This document shows, one piece after another, positions 4,448 to 60,133 of a stretch of DNA of 64,000 bases. How positions within the stretch are numbered: the first letter of the stretch is position 1; every line of letters starts with the position of its first letter. Origin of the DNA: Patescibacteria group bacterium (GTDB taxonomy: Bacteria > Patescibacteriota > Patescibacteriia > Patescibacteriales > JBAZCA01); contig JBAZUF010000005.1 in NCBI GenBank assembly GCA_041661505.1, positions 3,532 to 67,531 on the forward strand, read 5' to 3'. The notes under the pieces were generated by a model. The model was not told the origin of the DNA, did not search any database, and worked only from the letters and a program-made list of their open reading frames with translations. A program made the translations under genes and the position numbers.

Positions 4448-4527
4448 AATCTCTTATTTTGCTGGAGCTAAAATTAAAACCAAGACATAACCATAATCAA
4501 ACCATTCTATTACCATTTCATATCGGT

Positions 4528-4536
4528 ATTATACCA
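4528..4536 (-). promoter_or_regulatory. candidate extended -10 element (TGGTATAAT) for the twin-HTH gene
   Basis: The minus strand reads ..AAAAATATGGTATAATACCG.. about 80 nt upstream of ATG 4447 and downstream of the terminator at 4605-4644. I see no convincing -35. Confidence 0.35.
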
Positions 4537-4604
4537 TATTTTTATAAGCTCTAGAATATATTTTATGATTTATTTTTTATTCGCTCCCAGGCTTGTTTAA
4601 ATCT

Positions 4605-4644
4605 TTCCAAAACAAACAAAATCCCTTTAAACATAAGGGATTTT
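4605..4644 (-). terminator. rho-independent terminator downstream of the O-antigen-ligase-family gene
   Basis: Perfect 10-bp stem AAAATCCCTT / AAGGGATTTT (4618-4627 / 4635-4644) with a 7-nt loop. On the minus strand it is followed by TGTTTGTTTTGG. Confidence 0.6.
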
Positions 4645-4791
4645 ATTAACATTTTATTAAGAAGATTTTCTCCAGAGCGGCCAAAAAACAATAACCAGGA
4701 TTTGTATTAAGGCCGTATATTGAAAGTTATGCACAGTTATGCCCAGCTTATGAACACCATCTCACCAAAATCAAGAGCCAAACCTAAATAT

Positions 4792-11501: not shown

Positions 11502-11996
11502 TTACCCGGCGGCCGCGAAGGCGCGAATCGCGCCCTTGGCCGTCTCCAGGAGGCTGGACGGCTTCACATCCAAGCTGTAGCCGATAACGCAAAGAGTGAT
11601 GGCCGCCGCCCAGTACACTTTGGTGGCACTCACTTCAGCGTTGCCGATGACAGTCTGGAGTACAAAAAATGCTACCAGACTCCCGGCGCCGACGATGGCG
11701 CTCACCGTCCTTGGGTCAGTGCCGAGCGAAACGGCCTCGTACTGCGCCGCATTTCCGACGTAGCAGAAAGCTGCGGCCAGGAGAAAAGGTACGATACAGC
11801 CGGCAAAATCATAATCAAATACCGGATTCACGAATTTGCCGAAAAAAAATTTCAGAGCCCAAAAGGTTCCCATCATGCCCAGCGTATCGCCCACCGGAAT
11901 TCCTTTGCGGGTCAAATAGCACATAACTATGCCCATTCCCGCGTAGGAAAGCGCCGAGGCGATGCTTAACCCCTTGCCGATTCCTATGATTTCCAC
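11502..11996 (-). CDS. small integral membrane protein, family not recognised
   Basis: 164 aa with 4-5 hydrophobic helices. The GTG start at 11996 is preceded by a strong SD (CCGGAGGGAGAGGAAAC-GTG). The sequence looks more GC-rich than its neighbours by eye. Confidence 0.7.
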   Translation of the reverse strand: MEIIGIGKGLSIASALSYAGMGIVMCYLTRKGIPVGDTLGMMGTFWALKFFFGKFVNPVFDYDFAGCIVPFLLAAAFCYVGNAAQYEAVSLGTDPRTVSAIVGAGSLVAFFVLQTVIGNAEVSATKVYWAAAITLCVIGYSLDVKPSSLLETAKGAIRAFAAAG

Positions 11997-18626: not shown

Positions 18627-19199
18627 CTAGCTCCGCCTGATTTTTATGTCATAATCAATCTGCTCGATTTTTCTTAAATTAGTTTTGGCCTGGTCGTATT
18701 TGGTGCGCAGGTAGCCGGTCATGTCAAATAATACCAGCTCGGCCATTATTTCATTAATTACTCCCTTAATTTTGTCCACTTCATCCATCTGCCCCCGGGA
18801 AGCCTTATTAATCGCCAGACGCACCATCTCGCCGGTAAGATCGCAAATCCCGCCCAGATAGCTTTCAGTATCGATTTTCACTTTGGCCACTTTATCGATT
18901 TTCTTTCCGGACATTACATAGAAAAACATTTTGGCTTCAACGTATTCCTCCATGCCCGCCTTAAAAGACCCTTCTTCGTAGAGCCGGCTATGCCCGAATT
19001 TTTTATCAAGATAGGCTAATTTTTCCTCGATTTCTTTTAAGGAAACTTCGGCGATCGATAAATCATTCCGGTGCAAAGAAAAAATGACTCTCTTTGAATC
19101 ATGCAAAACCTGGTTTGATAAGCTGATAATTTGCCTCCGCTCACCCTCATGCTTGTCATAATCAGCTTTCAGCTGTTTGATAAATTTTTTGTTTAACAT
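18627..19199 (-). CDS. translin-family protein (COG2178-type)
   Basis: 190 aa, all-helical. YLGGICDLTGEMVRLAI matches the translin/TRAX ..YL.G.ADLTGEL.R.. motif. The C-terminus LRTKYDQAKTNLRKIEQIDYDI parallels human translin LRKRYDGLKYDVKKVEEVVYDL. Confidence 0.6.
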   Translation of the reverse strand: MLNKKFIKQLKADYDKHEGERRQIISLSNQVLHDSKRVIFSLHRNDLSIAEVSLKEIEEKLAYLDKKFGHSRLYEEGSFKAGMEEYVEAKMFFYVMSGKKIDKVAKVKIDTESYLGGICDLTGEMVRLAINKASRGQMDEVDKIKGVINEIMAELVLFDMTGYLRTKYDQAKTNLRKIEQIDYDIKIRRS

Positions 19200-24611: not shown

Positions 24612-25010
24612 CTATCTTCTATCAATTGCCTCATTCACCAGCCGGTCAGCTTCCTTATTCTTTTCTCTTGGCACATGCGTAAACTTAACCTTTTTAAAGC
24701 CCAAAGTCAAGTTGTTGATTTTCAAAAATAGCGGCGCCAAATCGGAGTTTTTTACTTTATATTCGCGTTTTATTTGCTTTACTACGAGTTCAGAATCAAG
24801 ATAAAAATCCAGTTCTTCTGCCTTGCAGGTCTTAGCTTTTTCCAAAGCGGCGATTACTGCTTTGTATTCCGCCTGATTATTAGTCGCTTCGCCGATATAT
24901 TCGGACACGGTGAACACCACCTTAGCATCTTCATCATAAGCGATCGCCCCAATCCCCGCCGGCCCCGGATTCCCCCTTGCCCCTCCGTCGGTAAATATTT
25001 TTAGCTTCAT
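24612..25010 (-). CDS. rnhA: ribonuclease HI
   Basis: Contains MKLKIFTDGGARGNPGPAGIG..NNQAEYKAVIAALE..LDSELVVKQI..HVPREKNKEADRLVNEA, with the DEDD catalytic residues in the canonical RNase H context. I prefer the start at 25010. The track start 25031 lies inside the outer arm of hairpin element A. Confidence 0.9.
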   Translation of the reverse strand: MKLKIFTDGGARGNPGPAGIGAIAYDEDAKVVFTVSEYIGEATNNQAEYKAVIAALEKAKTCKAEELDFYLDSELVVKQIKREYKVKNSDLAPLFLKINNLTLGFKKVKFTHVPREKNKEADRLVNEAIDRR

Positions 25011-25022
25011 AATTTTATATTG

Positions 25023-25210
25023 TTTTGTCATTTTATTTATGTGCGAGCCATTGAGAAAATTTAGTATTATTTTTTGTACAATTGAGGCAATAAATTTTCA
25101 CTGTTTGATCCGCCCCGTGTCAACGGGGCGGAGAGTTTGAAAATTTGTCCGTAAATTGTGCAAAAAATCTAAATTTTTTCGCAGGCGAGTGAATAAATAA
25201 AATGACAAAA
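25023..25210. repeat. long imperfect palindrome / hairpin element A (188 nt) with conserved apical core
   Basis: The outer arms 25023-25040 TTTTGTCATTTTATTTAT and 25193-25210 ATAAATAAAATGACAAAA are perfectly complementary (18 bp). Inner pairings include ATTTTTTGTACAATT/AATTGTGCAAAAAAT and AAATTTTC/GAAAATTT. The apex is CTGTTTGAT-CCGCCCCG-TGTCAA-CGGGGCGG-AGAGTT (25101-25137). Confidence 0.85.
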
Positions 25211-25243
25211 TTTTTCAGCGACGAGCAATCAAATTTCTTTAAT

Positions 25244-26983
25244 TCATTTAACCTTAATATCAATAATCTTTAACTGCACATCCCTCCGTCCGTTATACTC
25301 ATTAATCTCCGGGTAATAAACCATGTCAATTTTATCCCCGATCTTTAAAGCCTTCCACTGTTCGGACTGCCCGAAACCGATAGCGTAAATCAGGCTAGAC
25401 TCTTCACTTTTCACTCTTAATTTTATATGCTGATTTTGCGCCCCCATGCGCATGATGTCCATAACCAATATCTTTTTCGAAACAAACTTCGGCTTCTCGT
25501 TTCCGGCCCCGAAAGGCGCGAATTTTTCCAGCTCCAAAATCAAATTTTCGCTTATTTCTGACAGGTCTAATTCTATGTCAATTTTTACTTTCGGCTTTAA
25601 TACCAATTTTCCCAGCTCCCGTCCGGCAATTTCTTGGATTTTTTTCATAAAACCGTTTAAATTCTTTTCTTCCAGGCTGAATCCGCAGGCGGCCGGATGC
25701 CCGCCGTACTTGTACAAAAATTTTGAACACTCCTCCAGCGCTTTTATTAAATTAAATTCTTCAATGCTCCGGCCCGAACCCTTAAATTCTCCATTTGAAC
25801 CGACAGTAATTACCAGGGCCGGCAGATAAAATTTCTCCGCTACCCGCCCGGCAATAAGCCCTACGACGCCTTCGTTCCAAGCTTTTTTTTCCAAACCTTT
25901 ATCAGTAACAGCGATTATTATTTTATTGTCTTTGCATTTTGGGTCGTCTTCAAGCATTTTTACGATCTCTTCAGATATCTTTTCCGTTATCATCTGGCGC
26001 TCAAAGTTTCTTTGGTTTAGGGCCTGGGCCAGTTCCTTCGCCCGGCTCCGGTCGCGGGTGATTAAAAGCTCGTAAGCCGTATTAGCGTGATCAAGCCGGC
26101 CGGCGGCGTTAAGCCTCGGTCCGAGCTGGAACCCGATATTCCAGGAATCGAGCTTTTTCCCGTTATTTAACTGGGAAACTTCAATCAATTCACGCAGGCC
26201 GATGCGTTTGGTTTTATTCAATATTTCCAGGCCTTTTTTAACTAAAATCCGGTTCTCATCCCTTAATGGCACCATGTCGGCAACAGTCCCGACCGCCACC
26301 AAGTCCAAAATCCTGTCTTCTAATTTCTTTTTGTCATCACCCGAAAGCTTAGACCGGCGGGTTATGGCCGTAGCAAATTTAAAAGCCACCCCGACGCCGG
26401 CTAAAAATCTAAAGGGATATTTTTCGCCGGGGAGGTTGGGATTAATAACCAAACATTTTGGCCAGTCTTTCTTTTCTTCGGGCGCCGAATGGTGGTCGGT
26501 GATAATTATTTCCAGCCCGAGGCTTTTCGCGAACTCGGCTTCAGGCGCGTTTCTAATTCCGGTATCAACGGTAATAATCAATTTGACGCCCTTGTCTTTA
26601 GCTTCTTCCAGCGCGTTCATATTCATGCCGTAGCCTTCGGTTGTCCGAAAAGGGATGTAAACGCCGACGTCCGCTTTCAGCGTCTTCAGGGTTTCGACCA
26701 TAACTACCGAAGCGGTTACCCCGTCCGCGTCATAATCCCCGTAAACCAATATCTTATTTTTTTTCTTTACATGATTAATTACCGAATCTACCGCCGCGGC
26801 CATATCCTTAAAATCATCGGGGTCGTGCGCGTCCTCGTAAGTCCCTTTTAAAAACCGCTCTATATCTTTCTTGTCCCGAAACCCCCGGTTAATGAGCAAT
26901 TGCAAAATAACCCGATTGTATTCGGGATATTTTTTTAGAATTTTATCAGAAACTTTTGGCGCAATCTGCCAATCCTTTGTCAT
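25244..26983 (-). CDS. recJ: single-stranded-DNA-specific exonuclease RecJ
   Basis: DHH motifs (YGDYDADGVT, TVDTG, ITDHH), DHHA1 (GGHPAACG) and a C-terminal OB-like region. I chose the start at ATG 26983 (MTKDWQIAPK..ILQLLINRG). The track start 27106 adds 41 residues without RecJ similarity, so the start is uncertain. Confidence 0.9.
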   Translation of the reverse strand: MTKDWQIAPKVSDKILKKYPEYNRVILQLLINRGFRDKKDIERFLKGTYEDAHDPDDFKDMAAAVDSVINHVKKKNKILVYGDYDADGVTASVVMVETLKTLKADVGVYIPFRTTEGYGMNMNALEEAKDKGVKLIITVDTGIRNAPEAEFAKSLGLEIIITDHHSAPEEKKDWPKCLVINPNLPGEKYPFRFLAGVGVAFKFATAITRRSKLSGDDKKKLEDRILDLVAVGTVADMVPLRDENRILVKKGLEILNKTKRIGLRELIEVSQLNNGKKLDSWNIGFQLGPRLNAAGRLDHANTAYELLITRDRSRAKELAQALNQRNFERQMITEKISEEIVKMLEDDPKCKDNKIIIAVTDKGLEKKAWNEGVVGLIAGRVAEKFYLPALVITVGSNGEFKGSGRSIEEFNLIKALEECSKFLYKYGGHPAACGFSLEEKNLNGFMKKIQEIAGRELGKLVLKPKVKIDIELDLSEISENLILELEKFAPFGAGNEKPKFVSKKILVMDIMRMGAQNQHIKLRVKSEESSLIYAIGFGQSEQWKALKIGDKIDMVYYPEINEYNGRRDVQLKIIDIKVK

Positions 26984-27178
26984 ATTCCTGCCTTTTATCC
27001 GTTTTTTATCTACTTCCAGATTAACACATTTTGGGCCTACATCAAAGCCATCCCAAAAGTCCATATTACCATTGAGATAATCACCATAACGCTGATGATA
27101 ATCCACATTACCCTTACGAATTTCTTCTGTTTAGCCATAAGAATAAGTTTTTAAATTTTAACCCGCGGACAATAAAAA

Positions 27179-38772: not shown

Positions 38773-39699
38773 TTATTTCTTATTTACCGCGTCTTCTCCG
38801 TATACTCCTTTTACCAAGTCTAAATCTTTGCAGGTTTTGATAAGTAAATCCAAATTTTTTTCTTCCAGGCTTTTAATAACTTCCATCCCAAGCGGATCGC
38901 CCACCATCTTAGAGTACATTTCCCGGAAAGCGGCAAAATCTTTAATAAAGCAGTGGCCGCCGGCTCCGCGTCCGGCTTTATGGACCGGCACCATATGCAC
39001 GTCGTTATAAGCCAGTCCCGGCCGGGCTTCACCGCCTGATTCCCCGCTTTTATGGATTGGATTCAAATGGTTAGAACCGATGCGCGGATCCGCCGCCATC
39101 GCGTCCCTTACCGCTTCCCAGCGGCAACCCAGCTTTTCGGCTAAATCGTAAAGCAGGTTGATATAAATCACCTTAAAATAAAACCAGCAATTGCCTCCGT
39201 ACTTTATAAGCTCGGCTTCTTTGGCCGTGCAAACCAACTCGTAAGGGGCTTTAGGCAGGACGGCCAAAGCTTCTTTGGCTTTTTCTGTATATTCGTCATT
39301 TTGGACCGGCGAACCGATAATATTCCTGAACGGATGGGCGGCGTCGTAGGCGGCCGTGGACTCGGTTAAAAATTCCGGCGAATGAAAAATGAACTTGCCC
39401 GGATTTTCTTCCTGGATAGATTCGGTCGTCCCGGGTAAAAGGGTAGATTTTATCACTACCGACTTCCCTTCACCCGCCAGCTTAACCACACTCCTTAAGA
39501 TACTTGAATCAAAGCCTTGGGGCGTAGTCGGGGTCGGGACGGCAATGAAAACGATATCGCAATCTTTGATCTTTTCCTTGTTTTGGACATAAGGTTCTTC
39601 CATAGCGTAGCGCACGACTTGAAAACCGCGCTTTTCAAAATCATCGGCATAATTCTTGCCGATCCACCCTTGTCCGATAAATCCGATTAGTTTTCCCAT
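38773..39699 (-). CDS. UDP-glucose/GDP-mannose dehydrogenase family protein, short form
   Basis: N-terminal Rossmann IGFIGQGWIGKN and IAVPTPT. The Cys-containing block GRGAGGHCFIKD resembles the catalytic GG.C..KD motif. At 308 aa it is about 100 aa shorter than typical UGDH as I recall them. Confidence 0.65.
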   Translation of the reverse strand: MGKLIGFIGQGWIGKNYADDFEKRGFQVVRYAMEEPYVQNKEKIKDCDIVFIAVPTPTTPQGFDSSILRSVVKLAGEGKSVVIKSTLLPGTTESIQEENPGKFIFHSPEFLTESTAAYDAAHPFRNIIGSPVQNDEYTEKAKEALAVLPKAPYELVCTAKEAELIKYGGNCWFYFKVIYINLLYDLAEKLGCRWEAVRDAMAADPRIGSNHLNPIHKSGESGGEARPGLAYNDVHMVPVHKAGRGAGGHCFIKDFAAFREMYSKMVGDPLGMEVIKSLEEKNLDLLIKTCKDLDLVKGVYGEDAVNKK

Positions 39700-39719
39700 A
39701 TTTTTACTTTGTTAAATAA

Positions 39720-39884
39720 GCTTGGACAATATATGCGATTCCATTATGATTTTTAGCGCAAATTATCCGTTAAAAATAGCCGCTGTTTGACCCGCCCTTC
39801 AGGGCGGGGAGTTCGGCTATTTTAGGATAATTTGCGCGTGACAAAGGCAAAAATCATCCATGGATGAGCGTATATTGTCCAAGC
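39720..39884. repeat. long imperfect palindrome / hairpin element B (165 nt) with conserved apical core
   Basis: Pairings: GCTTGGACAATATA/TATATTGTCCAAGC (14 bp), GCGCAAATTATCC/GGATAATTTGCGC and AAAATAGCCG/CGGCTATTTT. The apex is CTGTTTGAC-CCGCCC-TTCA-GGGCGG-GGAGTT (39783-39813). Confidence 0.85.
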
Positions 39885-39931
39885 TGATAAAATTGCAATT
39901 TTAAACACTATACCTTATTATTAAATAAAGT

Positions 39932-41131
39932 ATGGCAAAAGTCAAAAAATCCGCCTCCCCGGCGGGTAAAATCCTCTACCTTATTACCCAATCCGAGCTG
40001 GGCGGCGCGCAAAGCTATATTTTTGATTTGGCTAAAAACCTTAAGGAAGAGTACGAAATTAGCGTGGCTTTTGGCCTGTCCCGCAATCGGCGGGGCGAGC
40101 CGGGCGAGGCTGGGGAGCTGGCTAAAGCCTTAAAAAGCGAAGAAATTAGCGCTTTTTTCCTACCCCATCTTAAGCGCCGTATTTGCCCTCGAAATGACCT
40201 TTGGGCCTACTTTGAAATCAAGGCTTTAATCAAAAAATTAGAGCCGGATATAATCCATTTGAATAGCTCTAAGATCTCCATTCTTGGCTCTTTAGCGGCA
40301 AGGGCAGTAAAATCCAAAAAGACCCAGATAATCTATACTGCCCACGGCTGGGTCTTTAACGAGCCTATGTCGGGGATTAAAAAAGCCTTTTACAAATGGG
40401 CGGAAAAATTTACGGCCCGTTATAAAGATAAAATAATCTGCGTTTCCGAATTCGACCGGCAAGCCGCGCTAAAGGAAGAAATCGCTCCAGCGGAAAAGCT
40501 AGTCACTATCCATAACGGCATCGGCGAAATTAATTTCTTAACTAAAGAAGATGCCCGCCAAAAATTAAATCTTCCGCCAGACAGCTTGGTAATCGGCTCC
40601 ATCGGTAATTTATATAAGACTAAAGGCTTTGAATATTTTATTGAAGCGGCCGCGAGTCTATTAAAAAGCCAGCTCTCCGGCCAAACCAAAGCCCAGGCTG
40701 GACAGACTGCGCGTTCTCCGCTCGCCTTTATCATCATCGGCGAAGGCGGAGAAAGAAAAAATCTTGAGGCTTTGATAAATAAACATCATCTGGAAAAACA
40801 GTTTATTCTGGCTGGCCGCATTTCGGACGCCTCGCGCCTTTTAAAAGCTTTTGATGTTTATGTTTCTTCTTCAGTTAAAGAAGGCTTGTCTTACACCTTG
40901 ATCGAAGCAGTTCAGGCAGGACTGCCTATAGTCGCTACCGAGGTCGGCGGCAATCCGGAGGTTTTAGCCGGTTATAGCGCTGACCTTGTTGAACCCGGCG
41001 ATTCTCAAGCCCTCGCCGAAAAAATCAGCCGCCATCTTGGGCGTCCTTTTCCAATAAAAAAAATACCCCAAGGTTTTACTCTTCGGGAAATGCTTGAGAA
41101 GACAAAAAAAATCTACGCTTCATCCTTTTAA
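39932..41131 (+). CDS. glycosyltransferase family 4 (GT-B)
   Basis: Contains ILYLITQSELGGAQ, HLNSSK and SVKEGLSYTLIEAVQAGLPIVATEVGGNPE. Confidence 0.85.
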   Translation: MAKVKKSASPAGKILYLITQSELGGAQSYIFDLAKNLKEEYEISVAFGLSRNRRGEPGEAGELAKALKSEEISAFFLPHLKRRICPRNDLWAYFEIKALIKKLEPDIIHLNSSKISILGSLAARAVKSKKTQIIYTAHGWVFNEPMSGIKKAFYKWAEKFTARYKDKIICVSEFDRQAALKEEIAPAEKLVTIHNGIGEINFLTKEDARQKLNLPPDSLVIGSIGNLYKTKGFEYFIEAAASLLKSQLSGQTKAQAGQTARSPLAFIIIGEGGERKNLEALINKHHLEKQFILAGRISDASRLLKAFDVYVSSSVKEGLSYTLIEAVQAGLPIVATEVGGNPEVLAGYSADLVEPGDSQALAEKISRHLGRPFPIKKIPQGFTLREMLEKTKKIYASSF

Positions 41132-46885: not shown

Positions 46886-46929
46886 CAGATTATGCCCAAT
46901 GCGCGATGAAGAATAAATTCGTATCTAAA

Positions 46930-46967
46930 TCATATAAAAATAGCCCGCACTTGGCAAGGCTATTTTT
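46930..46967 (-). terminator. candidate terminator after the cupin gene
   Basis: AAAATAGCC / GGCTATTTT is a perfect 9-bp stem (46937-46945 / 46958-46966) with a 12-nt loop and a U-rich 3' flank on the minus strand. Confidence 0.5.
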
Positions 46968-47050
46968 AAGCGCTTTCTTATATCAAATTTTTTCAAACCA
47001 ATCTTCAGGGCCGTTTTCTTCGCCTCCACCTCTTAATCCTGCCGCTATTT

Positions 47051-49467: not shown

Positions 49468-49487
49468 ATCTAATATTTATCTAAGTA

Positions 49488-49619
49488 AATCCAATATCTT
49501 CTGAAGGGGTTCTTTTGGCTAAAATTGCTTGGTTCGCCCGGGGCGAAATTTTGGCCAAAAGCAGAGTAAAAATTTTCGCTGGAAAAATTTTTATGTCCCT
49601 GAAGAAGATATTGGATTTC
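49488..49619. repeat. intercistronic long hairpin element C (132 nt), structurally similar to A/B/D but lacking their core motif
   Basis: Pairings: AAATCCAATATCTTCT (49488-49503) with AGAAGATATTGGATTT (49604-49619), 16 bp perfect, and CTTTTGGCTAAAATT with AATTTTGGCCAAAAG. The apex is TTCGCCCGGGGCGAA. The right arm carries an extra AAAAATTTT..AAAAATTTTT branch. Confidence 0.7.
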
Positions 49620-49620
49620 C

Positions 49621-50412
49621 TTATCGCTTTCTCGTCCACATGCGCCTCCCCATCCTCAATTTATCCATAGAGGTGCTTTCTTCTTCGCGGATTATTTTCC
49701 CGGTCAAAGCTAAAAATGCCTCTTCCAAAGATTCGGTCTTGGTTTGTTTCTTTAAATCATCAGCCGTTCCAGTGGCGATAATTTTCCCGTGGTCGATAAT
49801 CGCGATCCGCTCCGCCATCTTTTCCGCTTCTTCCATGTAGTGGGTAGTAAAAAACACGGTGGTTTTCTCTTTTTTATTCAGTTCTTTCAGATAGTTCCAC
49901 ATGTGATTCCGGGTTTGCGGATCCAGGCCTAAGGTCGGCTCGTCTAAAAATATAATTTTCGGGTGGTGCAGAAGCCCGCGGGCGATTTCCAGGCGCCTTT
50001 TCATTCCGCCGGAGAACTCCTTAACAAAACTGTTGCGCCGATCGTCCAGTTCTACGAATTTCAAAAGCTCGTCAATTTTTTTCCGCCTTTCAATCTTCGG
50101 CACGTCGTAAAGAATTCCGTGGAATTCAAGATTTTCAAAAGCCGTCAGCTCGTCGTCCAGGCTTGGGTCCTGAAAAATAATACCAATATTCCTTCGGACA
50201 TTACTTGAGTCCTTGGCCACGTTAAATCCCGCCACATCCATTTCCCCTTTAGTGGGATTTAAAAGCGTCGTAAGCATCTTGATGGTCGTTGATTTGCCGG
50301 CGCCGTTCGGGCCTAAAAAGGCGAACACTTCCCCCTCTTTGACTGAAAAGGAAATATTATCGACAGCCGTAAAATCGTCAAATTTTTTGGTTAAATTTTC
50401 TACTTTTATCAT
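49621..50412 (-). CDS. ABC transporter ATP-binding protein (DrrA/ABC-2 type)
   Basis: Walker A GPNGAGKST, Q-loop, signature FSGGMKRRLEIA, Walker B IIFLDEPT and H-loop TTHYMEE. Confidence 0.93.
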   Translation of the reverse strand: MIKVENLTKKFDDFTAVDNISFSVKEGEVFAFLGPNGAGKSTTIKMLTTLLNPTKGEMDVAGFNVAKDSSNVRRNIGIIFQDPSLDDELTAFENLEFHGILYDVPKIERRKKIDELLKFVELDDRRNSFVKEFSGGMKRRLEIARGLLHHPKIIFLDEPTLGLDPQTRNHMWNYLKELNKKEKTTVFFTTHYMEEAEKMAERIAIIDHGKIIATGTADDLKKQTKTESLEEAFLALTGKIIREEESTSMDKLRMGRRMWTRKR

Positions 50413-51559: not shown

Positions 51560-51568
51560 AGAATTTAT

Positions 51569-51746
51569 ATTTCTAATTATATTATGAGTGAAGCATTGAA
51601 AAATTATGGTTTGTAACGGCGTAAAAATTTTGCTACAAAATTTTACTGTTTGACCCCGCATTTGCGGGGGAGTTTAAAATTTTGTTAAAAATTTTTGCGC
51701 TGTTTCCTTAATTTTTCACCTGCAAACGAATAATATAATTAGAAAT
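51569..51746. repeat. long imperfect palindrome / hairpin element D (178 nt) with conserved apical core
   Basis: Pairings: ATTTCTAATTATATTAT (51569-51585) with ATAATATAATTAGAAAT (51730-51746), 17 bp perfect, plus TTGAAAAATTATGG/CCTTAATTTTTCAC-type pairing and GGCGTAAAAATTTT/AAAATTTTTGCGC. The apex is CTGTTTGAC-CCCGC-ATTT-GCGGG-GGAGTT (51646-51674). Confidence 0.85.
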
Positions 51747-51771
51747 TTAGCTTAACATATTAATTACACTC

Positions 51772-52998
51772 TTACTCATATCTCAAGGCCTCAATCGGAT
51801 TCAGTTTGGCGGCGCGCCGGGCCGGATAATAGCCGAAAATAATCCCGATGGCAGCCGAAACGCCGAAAGCCAAAAGAACGGAAGACAGAGAAATCGACGT
51901 GGCGATGCTCGCGAATTTAGAAACGATCGCGGCTAAAAGCCAGCCTAAAATAATCCCAAAAGCCCCGCCGATAAAAGTAAGCATAATAGCTTCGGCTAAA
52001 AATTGATTGGAAATATCGTTCCTTTTGGCGCCAATGGCTTTGCGCAGTCCTATTTCCCGGGTTCGCTCGGTAACGTTAGTAAGCATCATGTTCATAATGC
52101 CGATTCCGCCCACAATCAAGGAAATTCCGGCAATAGCGGCTAAAAGCATAGTAAAAGTTCCGGTTACCGAGGATGCCGTTGCCACGATGTCGGCCTGGTT
52201 TAAAATCTGGAAATCAGCATTAGCCGCGTTAGATATTTTATGGCGCTGGAGCAAGAGATCATTAACCTGATTTTGCACTGCGGTTAAACCGGACTGATCC
52301 TGGGATTGGATATAAATTGTACTAATGTACTCGCTTCCGGATAAATAGCCTTTGGCGGTCGTTAATGGCACAAAAATCATGTCGTCCTGCGAACCGAACC
52401 CTGATCCGCCCTTGGACTTAGAAACGCCGATAACTTTAAAATTAACTTGTTTAATGGCAACAGTTTTGCCAAGGGCGTCAGCTCCGGTGCCGAATAAGTC
52501 GTCTCTCGCTGTCGGTCCTAAAATCGCCACTTTGCTATTAGACCTTAAGTCAGTTTCGGTAAAAAATTGTCCCTGGTCTATCTCGAGATTCCTGACCGCC
52601 GGATATTCAGCTACAGTGCCCACCACCTGGGTATTGGTGTTAGTGCCCTTGGCGGTTATCTGATAGCGGCCAGTCACTTCCGGCTCAACGGCTTTGACGC
52701 CGGTAACTTCAGTCTTGATGGCCTCCGCGTCTTCGGTAGTTAGGGTAGTGGCCGAACCCCGGCCGGCCGATACCCCGCCGCCGCCGACAGAACGCTGGAA
52801 GCCCGGCATAACGATTAAAAGATTGGAGCCGATGGATTCTATGCTGGCTTCAATCGATTTCTGGGCCCCCTGGCCGATCGCGACCATGGCGATTACCGAA
52901 CCAATGCCGATAATTATCCCTAAAATCGTTAAGCCTGACCGGGCTTTGTTGGCGCGGATAGCGAAAAATGTCTCCTGGAATAAATCATTTACTAGCAT
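51772..52998 (-). CDS. MacB/FtsX-family ABC transporter permease
   Basis: 408 aa. TM1, a large extracytoplasmic MacB_PCD domain, then a C-terminal FtsX 3-TM bundle (..ERTREIGLRKAIGA...I..QFL.EA..). Confidence 0.9.
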   Translation of the reverse strand: MLVNDLFQETFFAIRANKARSGLTILGIIIGIGSVIAMVAIGQGAQKSIEASIESIGSNLLIVMPGFQRSVGGGGVSAGRGSATTLTTEDAEAIKTEVTGVKAVEPEVTGRYQITAKGTNTNTQVVGTVAEYPAVRNLEIDQGQFFTETDLRSNSKVAILGPTARDDLFGTGADALGKTVAIKQVNFKVIGVSKSKGGSGFGSQDDMIFVPLTTAKGYLSGSEYISTIYIQSQDQSGLTAVQNQVNDLLLQRHKISNAANADFQILNQADIVATASSVTGTFTMLLAAIAGISLIVGGIGIMNMMLTNVTERTREIGLRKAIGAKRNDISNQFLAEAIMLTFIGGAFGIILGWLLAAIVSKFASIATSISLSSVLLAFGVSAAIGIIFGYYPARRAAKLNPIEALRYE

Positions 52999-59992: not shown

Positions 59993-60054
59993 ATTCTTAA
60001 TCCTTAAATTTAACTATGTTTATTATTACATAAACAAGTTAAATCGTCCATTAA

Positions 60055-60088
60055 GAAAAATTGCCCCTGTAAATTGGGGCGGTTTTTT
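60055..60088. terminator. candidate terminator hairpin between pyrC and the upstream-region gene
   Basis: GCCCC-TGTAAATT-GGGGC (extendable by two G-U pairs on the + strand) is flanked by A5 on the left and T6 on the right. It lies downstream of the pyrC stop (60134) on the minus strand. Confidence 0.4.
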
Positions 60089-60133
60089 CCTGTCTCGCCA
60101 TCCGGCGATAAATAATAAATAACCGGGTCGGGA

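Follow-up and report, generated by a model that had tools for sequence, protein, structure and literature searches.

The stretch of DNA analysed here (the window; 64,000 nt of a metagenome-assembled Patescibacteria, or CPR, genome) carries three long hairpins, A, B and D, which are solitary, lie 10-14 kb apart among housekeeping genes and each occupy the space next to a start codon (Table 1). The foot of A is 12 nt from the homolog-supported start of rnhA (25010), B lies 16-20 nt from the start codon at 39699 and D 6-9 nt from that of the DUF5666-like gene, while A and D end 33 nt and 22 nt, respectively, from the stop codon of the gene upstream. The mechanically called starts of the ORFs at 25244-27106 (recJ) and 24612-25031 (rnhA) are probably too long: RecJ homologs span only 93% of the 620-aa ORF, rnhA homologs, at 134-136 aa, begin close to the second ATG (25010), and the longer rnhA start at 25031 falls inside hairpin A. 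Beside B, the glycosyltransferase gene (39932-41131; P0241) is labeled "partial" in its NCBI record on a 5.3-kb contig, which may mean that some assemblies break near this hairpin.

Table 1. Coordinates of the hairpins, their apices and the inserted segment in the window.
Feature	Position	Strand	Description
Element A	25023..25210	+	188-nt rod hairpin at the recJ/rnhA junction; recJ stop 25244
A apex	25101..25137	+	CTGTTTGA-T-CCGCCCCG-TGTCAA-CGGGGCGG-A-GAGTT; pattern match
Element B	39716..39888	+	173-nt rod in the divergent spacer between a UGDH-like gene (-) and a glycosyltransferase gene (+)
B apex	39783..39813	+	CTGTTTGA-C-CCGCCC-TTCA-GGGCGG-G-GAGTT; pattern match
Element D	51566..51749	+	184-nt rod between a macB-like permease gene (stop 51772-51774) and a DUF5666-like gene (start 51559)
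D apex	51646..51674	+	CTGTTTGA-C-CCCGC-ATTT-GCGGG-G-GAGTT; pattern match
Hairpin C	49482..49623		142-nt inserted hairpin without the CUGUUUGA/GAGUU core
Extra segment at the recJ/rnhA junction	25011..25243		233 nt, absent in four relatives

Folded as RNA, each of the three forms a single long imperfect hairpin, with a minimum free energy (MFE) of -86.6 kcal/mol for A (+ strand; z -12.6), -88.3 kcal/mol for B (z -10.9) and -71.8 kcal/mol for D (z -9.4), and in each case 0 of 200 shuffles was equally stable. Their arms rank with the longest inverted repeats of the window in a repeat search, and covariance model R1 scores A at 72.1 bits (E 1.9e-14), B at 76.6 bits and D at 66.5 bits. When 20 intergenic regions were folded, only A, B, D and a fourth hairpin, C, came out as a single long hairpin (z -8.5 to -11.4), and these four are the most structured intergenic regions of the window. 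The other outlier of that scan, 59993-60133 (z -7.4 there and -4.1 with 200 shuffles), is a set of ordinary short hairpins. An earlier note on this DNA had described three long intergenic palindromes and quoted their sequences, and these are confirmed by the sequence itself, by the repeat ranking and by fold z scores of -9 to -13.

The apex CUGUUUGA-N-[GC stem-loop]-N'-GAGUU is common to all three hairpins and in each lies on the + strand. The pattern CTGTTTGAYCC-N(8-24)-GGRGAGTT has three matches in the window, all on the + strand, compared with 0.00 expected from shuffles, and the looser TGTTTGA...GAGTT likewise has three, compared with 0.13 expected, which bears out the claim that A, B and D have a common apex in the same orientation. 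The apex strands of 8 and 5 nt had also been predicted to form an asymmetric internal loop, and they are so placed in every MFE structure. In the resulting rod, a hairpin of 140-200 nt, the invariant loop 5'-CUGUUUGA/GAGUU-3' sits on a helix of ~10 bp, with a covarying closing pair and a GC-rich apical hairpin above it, and below the apical ~10 bp there follow further conserved small loops, spaced by helices of free sequence. The arms had been said to differ completely between the copies, which holds for their sequence, as in BLAST an arm of A, B or D matches only its own opposite arm and none of those of the other copies, but not for their architecture: A and D have helices of 2-3 bp flanked by GA/AG (internal-loop modules) that are common to copies from other phyla, and B has the C-GUUA/A loop of the family, which is also found in copies from other phyla. 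Resemblances to K-turn, hammerhead, loop E and SRP domain IV were rejected, as strand order or bulge position does not fit. The idea that the arms are copies of other window sequence, as in hairpin-RNA targeting, was rejected, since BLAST gave no such match.

The sites were compared with those on syntenic contigs from Patescibacteria (CPR) relatives, whose proteins are 73-83% identical to those of the window. The recJ and rnhA genes overlap in two relatives (L138 and L139) and are 10 nt apart in a third (L134), and in a fourth (L136) the gap is 59 nt and holds a palindrome unrelated to A. The L136 palindrome (11747-11805) consists of tandem heptamers (AACTCAT x3 ... ATGAGTT x5) within the recJ-rnhA spacer. 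The segment that is extra in the window genome corresponds to rod A, flanked by ~12 nt towards rnhA and ~33 nt towards recJ. The site of B is represented in L263 by a 69-nt spacer, both flanks of which align to the window, without a rod or any hairpin; at the site of C, the ABC ATPase and permease genes of L140 (permease 83% identical) are 16 nt apart and no hairpin lies between them. At the site of D, L140-L142 have an ORF of 65-71 aa between macB and the DUF5666-like gene and no rod, and the window genome has lost this ORF and carries D in its place. The small ORF is hydrophobic and conserved (L140:11250-11470; L141 and L142:11232-11447). A covariance-model search of ~140 kb of the relatives' syntenic DNA gave no family copy.

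As A, B, C and D are absent where the same genes of the relatives abut or overlap, the four hairpins are lineage-specific insertions, placed in very short intergenic spacers of a Patescibacteria genome. Judged from these site comparisons, A, B and D were inserted only after the window genome split from its close relatives, hence they behave like a mobile repeat rather than a conserved gene-control structure, and the conservation at orthologous sites on which the earlier note had made its reading depend is not found for any of the four. A 4-nt sequence is present at each junction and a single time in the empty site for A (ATTA), B (AGCT) and C (ATAA), which suggests 4-bp target duplications, although these are not secure at the ~80% identity of the relatives that provide the empty sites. 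The inserted DNA of A and B is not derived from flanking sequence; the empty sites are unrelated to the arms, and an origin of the arms as inverted duplications of the target site was rejected.

Hairpin C differs from the other three. It folds with z -7.4, lies directly after the stop codon of the ABC ATPase gene and has a GC apical stem with a 7-nt 5' bulge (GCTTGGT) and no GAGTT, and it gives no match to covariance model R1. Its tentative inclusion in the family by the earlier note is therefore not upheld, and C may be a degenerate relative or represent a second hairpin family. Weak covariance-model matches at 46897-47005 of the window and in L141 were set aside as ordinary hairpins or terminators. 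A domain search of window ORFs found, in those scanned, no transposase, as had already been remarked from the sequence, and no reverse transcriptase or integrase domain. Two further features of the window may be mentioned. The minus-strand gene at 18627-19199 belongs to the Translin family (PF01997) and is conserved in relatives; proteins of this family bind single-stranded nucleic acids and are better known from eukaryotes and archaea. The intergenic region 4448-4791 (344 nt) folds at -78.6 kcal/mol on the - strand and at -55.3 kcal/mol on the + strand (z -2.4); a search of it against Rfam gave no match, and it may hold an unannotated RNA or leader.

Outside the window, the exact apex pattern occurs at at least 120 loci in GTDB species genomes and at least 120 loci in JGI metagenomes, whereas by our arithmetic chance would give only a few hundred in the whole 596-Gb collection. 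Among the matches listed, 94 GTDB loci are recognised by covariance model R1 with E<0.01, and of the 125 metagenome matches listed, 85 lie at the tip of a hairpin whose two arms form at least 25 pairs with each other. Further copies, the lack of which the earlier note had named as evidence against a family, are thus very numerous among the GTDB and JGI matches listed. Hosts among these matches include Bacteroidota, Ignavibacteria, Calditrichota (Calditrichaceae), Patescibacteria, Desulfobacterota, Thermodesulfobacteriota, uncultured Gammaproteobacteria and Nitrospirota (Nitrospiraceae), with many in the Bacteroidota (Flavobacterium, Maribellus, Prolixibacteraceae, Cyclobacteriaceae, Sphingobacterium, Niabella and Odoribacter) and many in the Patescibacteria (Parcubacteria, Saccharibacteria, Peribacteria, Moranbacteria and Kazan), and the same 13 loop nucleotides are found from CPR to Bacteroidota and Proteobacteria. 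No BLAST match to the element was found in plasmids, and a viral origin was rejected, as 0 of 12 IMG/VR pattern matches were confirmed by the covariance model.

In some hosts the copies are recent. Copies that are near-identical over the whole element number at least eight in Flavobacterium undicola and at least five in two Maribellus species, while a copy from a related Flavobacterium differs from these by many compensatory changes. The window copies had been set apart from recently transposed, identical MITE copies in the earlier note, a distinction that fails for the family as a whole. Five of the eight F. undicola copies (L003, L015, L048, L068 and L088) have an extra module of ~30 nt, ACTCGAGCCGAAGGCGAACAGAGCGAAGCTA, in the 3' arm, which includes the mini-hairpin sequence GCGAAGC and suggests that rods are built modularly.

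Rfam 15 yields, at the gathering threshold, one tRNA for the window and tRNAs only for 18 loci that carry the element, and in E-value mode A and L103 give generic miRNA-hairpin or noise matches far below threshold; the remark that no described RNA family could be recognised agrees with this. Literature searches, including searches for the literal motif strings, returned no description of the element, which is a previously uncatalogued, strand-specific hairpin family found across many bacterial phyla.

Covariation was assessed on an alignment of 67 sequences, covering the apical stem and the helix of ~10 bp that adjoins the core. These helices are paired in 83% of cases, compared with 54% when partners are shuffled and 43-56% when partners are slid, and changes on both sides were counted in 390 cells compared with 145 in shuffles, which sustains the earlier proposal that the copies form a true family in which the apex is conserved and the arms are self-complementary and covary. 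As the pair that closes the loop, 33 sequences have C-G and 32 have U-A, and covariance-model matches that were not chosen by pattern add G-C and A-U, so that all four Watson-Crick forms occur; CUGUUUGA and GAGUU never change, also in these non-pattern matches. Since the aligned sequences were selected as hairpins and by motif, the CC/GG and loop invariance of the pattern-chosen set is partly imposed, whereas the Y-R covariation and the non-pattern matches are not.

The rod structure is also under strand-specific constraint. The motif strand is the more stable one in 140 of 165 non-redundant copies among the matches listed (Wilcoxon p=2.5e-19), with a mean of -71.7 vs -65.0 kcal/mol for the other strand, and has 954 G-U pairs in these copies vs 599. 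Part of this asymmetry is due to the conserved U-G pair and loop of the core, which contributes one pair per copy, and without the core U-G the counts are still 789 vs 599. For A, the RNA of the + strand folds at -86.6 and that of the - strand at -65.3 kcal/mol, a difference of 21 kcal/mol that shrinks to 5.6 kcal/mol when the strands are folded as DNA. The motif strand of A, B and D is the + strand, which is antisense to the flanking minus-strand genes.

Orientation to the flanking genes is random among the matches listed (33 co-directional, 31 anti, 21 convergent and 17 divergent), and the replication-strand bias expected of lagging-strand ssDNA elements is lacking (GC skew 27 vs 30). Clustering of the ORFs within 3-4 kb of first 74 and then 173 copies listed revealed no linked enzyme, as only generic two-component and ABC families recur, and no transposase or related IS family recurs within 4 kb of the 173 copies; no protein gene travels with the element. 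The Bacteroidota -7 motif TAnnTTTG was found once upstream vs twice in the control, matches in a sigma-70 promoter scan are at chance level, and a scan for intrinsic terminators found none at A, B and D, where the apex stem is followed by GAGUU and not by a U tract. A T-run (at least 4 within the 12 nt 3' of the rod) is present in 32 of 72 copies (44%) vs 8 of 72 on the other strand, which is only suggestive.

Copies from Bacteroidota, Ignavibacteria and Calditrichota, and some from CPR and Gammaproteobacteria, have a second hairpin after the rod, which is not present in A, B and D. In these copies the rod has GGCC...AGCC at its base, next comes the linker TTGAYTTTTTTG, and the second hairpin has a T-rich 5' arm, an A-rich 3' arm and a loop, RTCAAG, that is complementary to the linker CTTGAY. 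Linker and loop covary (T/A, C/G and A/T; for example L103:960-1010, L074, L115, L101, L032, L070 and L067). As a simple pseudoknot, this pairing is sterically incompatible with the hairpin stem, and it may reflect an alternative fold or a repeat at the DNA level. IS200/IS605-type ends were considered for the TTGAY linker and second hairpin of the Bacteroidota-type copies and rejected; the geometry is only partly alike, and the repeat unit ends right after the hairpin.

The best explanation, held with confidence a little above even, is that A, B and D represent a widespread interspersed mobile element that is non-autonomous and defined by its structure. This reading is based on the insertion polymorphism, the near-identical bursts, the intergenic scatter in random orientation, the absence of a linked gene, the strand-specific covarying rod and the apex that is invariant across phyla. 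The element would spread via a single-stranded intermediate, either RNA or ssDNA, and the apex would probably be the site at which it is recognised by a trans-acting enzyme whose gene lies at another place in the genome. Loop types, the T-run 3' of the rod and possible duplications of the target favor the RNA form, while the lack of promoters and the antisense placement in the window, where no room for a promoter is left, favor ssDNA. The window copies would be passengers that are tolerated and that are transcribed in antisense as part of the recJ-rnhA and macB operons, and effects on neighboring genes, such as an mRNA hairpin upstream of a start codon or the loss of a stop/start overlap, would be side effects and not a selected function. 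No transposase, reverse transcriptase or HUH partner was found in the window ORFs scanned or recurring beside the copies listed, so that mobility is here inferred from presence/absence and copy patterns only, and the partner enzyme is putative.

Against the mobile-element reading, the termini differ between A, B and D, unlike those of known transposase-driven MITEs. Moreover, the arms of A, B and D have diverged almost completely and yet are near-perfectly paired, with the apex intact, which calls for in-place selection or arm-to-arm conversion and suggests that a purely selfish passenger model leaves the upkeep of pairing and apex in each resident copy unexplained. It is tentatively proposed, as a possibility that we judge more doubtful than not, that the family represents a new class of structure-defined mobile element: a putative widespread protein would recognise a single-stranded rod by its CUGUUUGA/GAGUU loop alone, the rod being either RNA that is reverse-transcribed or ssDNA on which an enzyme, of the HUH type or another, would act, the machinery would move among CPR, Bacteroidota and Desulfobacterota, and pairing would be kept by selection or arm-to-arm conversion. 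In kind the element is an interspersed palindromic repeat, and the probability that a new mechanism underlies it is substantial.

Several features of the family would also suit multicopy structured ncRNA genes, whose motif-strand rod would act as a protein-binding scaffold or sponge RNA and whose copies would arise by duplication or horizontal transfer. These are the strong covariation, the strand-specific use of G-U pairs, the invariant loops of a non-Watson-Crick type (tandem GA next to U-G), the terminator-like look of the T-run found 3' of many rods, the second conserved hairpin of many copies, with its loop covarying with the linker, and the apex, which is intact in all three highly diverged window copies. 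Thus, of what is looked for in an independent ncRNA gene, covariation is present and a 3' T-run is seen in 44% of copies (n=72), but promoter enrichment was not found with either motif. Window rods, being 6-20 nt from start codons on the opposite strand, lack the space for a promoter; insertion polymorphism and bursts of near-identical copies typify repeats and not sRNA genes, and Rfam 15 contains no match, so that we regard ncRNA genes as rather improbable. The proposal of the earlier note, namely that the hairpins are cis-acting intercistronic or 5'-UTR RNA structures that regulate the stability, processing or translation of the mRNA of the downstream minus-strand genes, appears very unlikely. 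It draws on the position of the window copies, which stop 6-20 nt short of a start codon on its upstream side and almost certainly share a transcript with the operon genes, and on the mRNA-sense strand of A, which still folds (-65.3 kcal/mol; z -9.3). However, the constrained strand is antisense to these genes, the structures are missing at every orthologous site examined, and over the family (165 copies listed) orientation to the neighbors is random, with 33 co-directional vs 31 anti, and the neighboring gene families are unrelated. Neither the site conservation nor the orientation of a cis-regulatory leader is thus observed, nor, at A, B and D, the short GC stem with U tract of an intrinsic terminator.

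An ordinary DDE-transposase MITE, moved via terminal inverted repeats by a related IS elsewhere in the genome and with an apex that is conserved incidentally, would account for the palindromic shape, the intergenic location, the multicopy bursts and the possible 4-bp flanking duplications at A, B and C. The wholly different termini of the window copies around an invariant center are, however, the reverse of what TIR-driven families show, a strand-specific fold with G-U bias is unexpected if the substrate is double-stranded DNA, neither a related IS nor a transposase was found beside any of the 173 copies listed, and the same 13 loop nucleotides extend from CPR to Proteobacteria, which together make this account improbable. 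That the hairpins are independent local palindromes, formed for example by template switching, with a short motif shared by chance, would fit the arm sequences, which are unique to each copy, but is refuted by the family-wide data and has a negligible probability: the motif occurs three times in the window vs 0.00 expected, there are hundreds of copies of the same architecture elsewhere, and the inserted DNA does not come from flanking sequence.

Among known repeats, REP/REPIN elements, with their RAYT (TnpA-REP, HUH Y1), are most alike in how the element works, as both are chromosomal, intergenic and non-autonomous, lack a linked gene, have a strand-specific single-strand structure in which a short GC-rich hairpin is flanked by conserved single-stranded nucleotides, and are presumed to be acted on by an enzyme in trans. 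REPs, however, have 20-40 nt with a GTAG or CGTC tag, whereas the rod has 140-200 nt, an apical hairpin flanked by CUGUUUGA/GAGUU and no GTAG/CGTC; REPINs combine conserved arms with a variable loop, whereas the rod has an invariant apex and free arms of 60-80 nt, and, unlike REP/REPIN, the rod family keeps the same 13 loop nucleotides across many phyla. No RAYT, the cognate Y1 transposase whose gene is usually flanked by REPs, was found in the window ORFs scanned or beside the 173 copies listed. ERIC/IRU, Correia/NEMIS, RUP and YPAL resemble the rods as imperfect palindromes of 100-190 nt at intergenic or intercistronic sites that are co-transcribed, can fold in the mRNA and show filled/empty polymorphism. 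They are, in contrast, restricted to a genus or family and conserved in sequence over their whole length, above all at the termini, and compensatory arm divergence is not known for them, whereas the rod family crosses phyla, shows such divergence and is conserved in structure and central motif. The motif is presumably unrelated to the 127-bp enterobacterial ERIC consensus, and the host here is one of the Patescibacteria. Without a GTAG tag, conserved termini or genus restriction, the element thus fails the defining tests of REP/REPIN and ERIC/Correia, and it likewise departs from TIR MITEs, which have conserved terminal inverted repeats, while the termini of A, B and D are dissimilar and conservation is central.

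Structure-defined substrates offer further parallels. In integron attC sites, as in the rods, a strand-specific fold and not the sequence defines the substrate, with unpaired or extrahelical bases as recognition features; attC sites, however, have a conserved base (R''/R', L''/L') and a variable apex and form cassette arrays beside an integrase gene, whereas rods have a variable base and a conserved apex and are solitary, and no integrase was found in the window ORFs scanned. The ssoA-type single-strand origins of rolling-circle plasmids are long (130-200 nt), orientation-specific imperfect hairpins of variable sequence with small conserved motifs, and are read in single-stranded form. They are like the rods in length, in orientation-specific imperfect folding and in having small conserved motifs, but are plasmid-borne and single-copy with the motifs RSB and CS-6, whereas rods are chromosomal and multicopy and have no plasmid matches. 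The TIGR units of Tas systems, also known from CPR bacteria, have variable palindromic stems and short conserved motifs, form tandem arrays beside a Nop-domain tas gene and have large loops with 8-12-nt spacers flanked by boxes C/D (PMC12045711). Hairpin units with variable palindromic stems and short motifs are thus common to both, but rods are solitary and almost fully helical, with only small internal loops. Because each copy stands alone and the scan of window ORFs revealed no gene with a Nop domain, a TIGR-Tas array was rejected.

If undescribed, the family would be among the most widely distributed structured non-coding elements that are missing from RNA-family catalogs, and it would imply a putative trans-acting recognition machinery as well as a horizontal route between phyla. 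Insertion at operon junctions of streamlined genomes is likely to affect mRNA folding and translational coupling, and metagenome assemblies may be fragmented by contig breaks at the rod palindromes. As Flavobacterium undicola and Maribellus are cultured and carry recent bursts, the mechanism is open to experiment.
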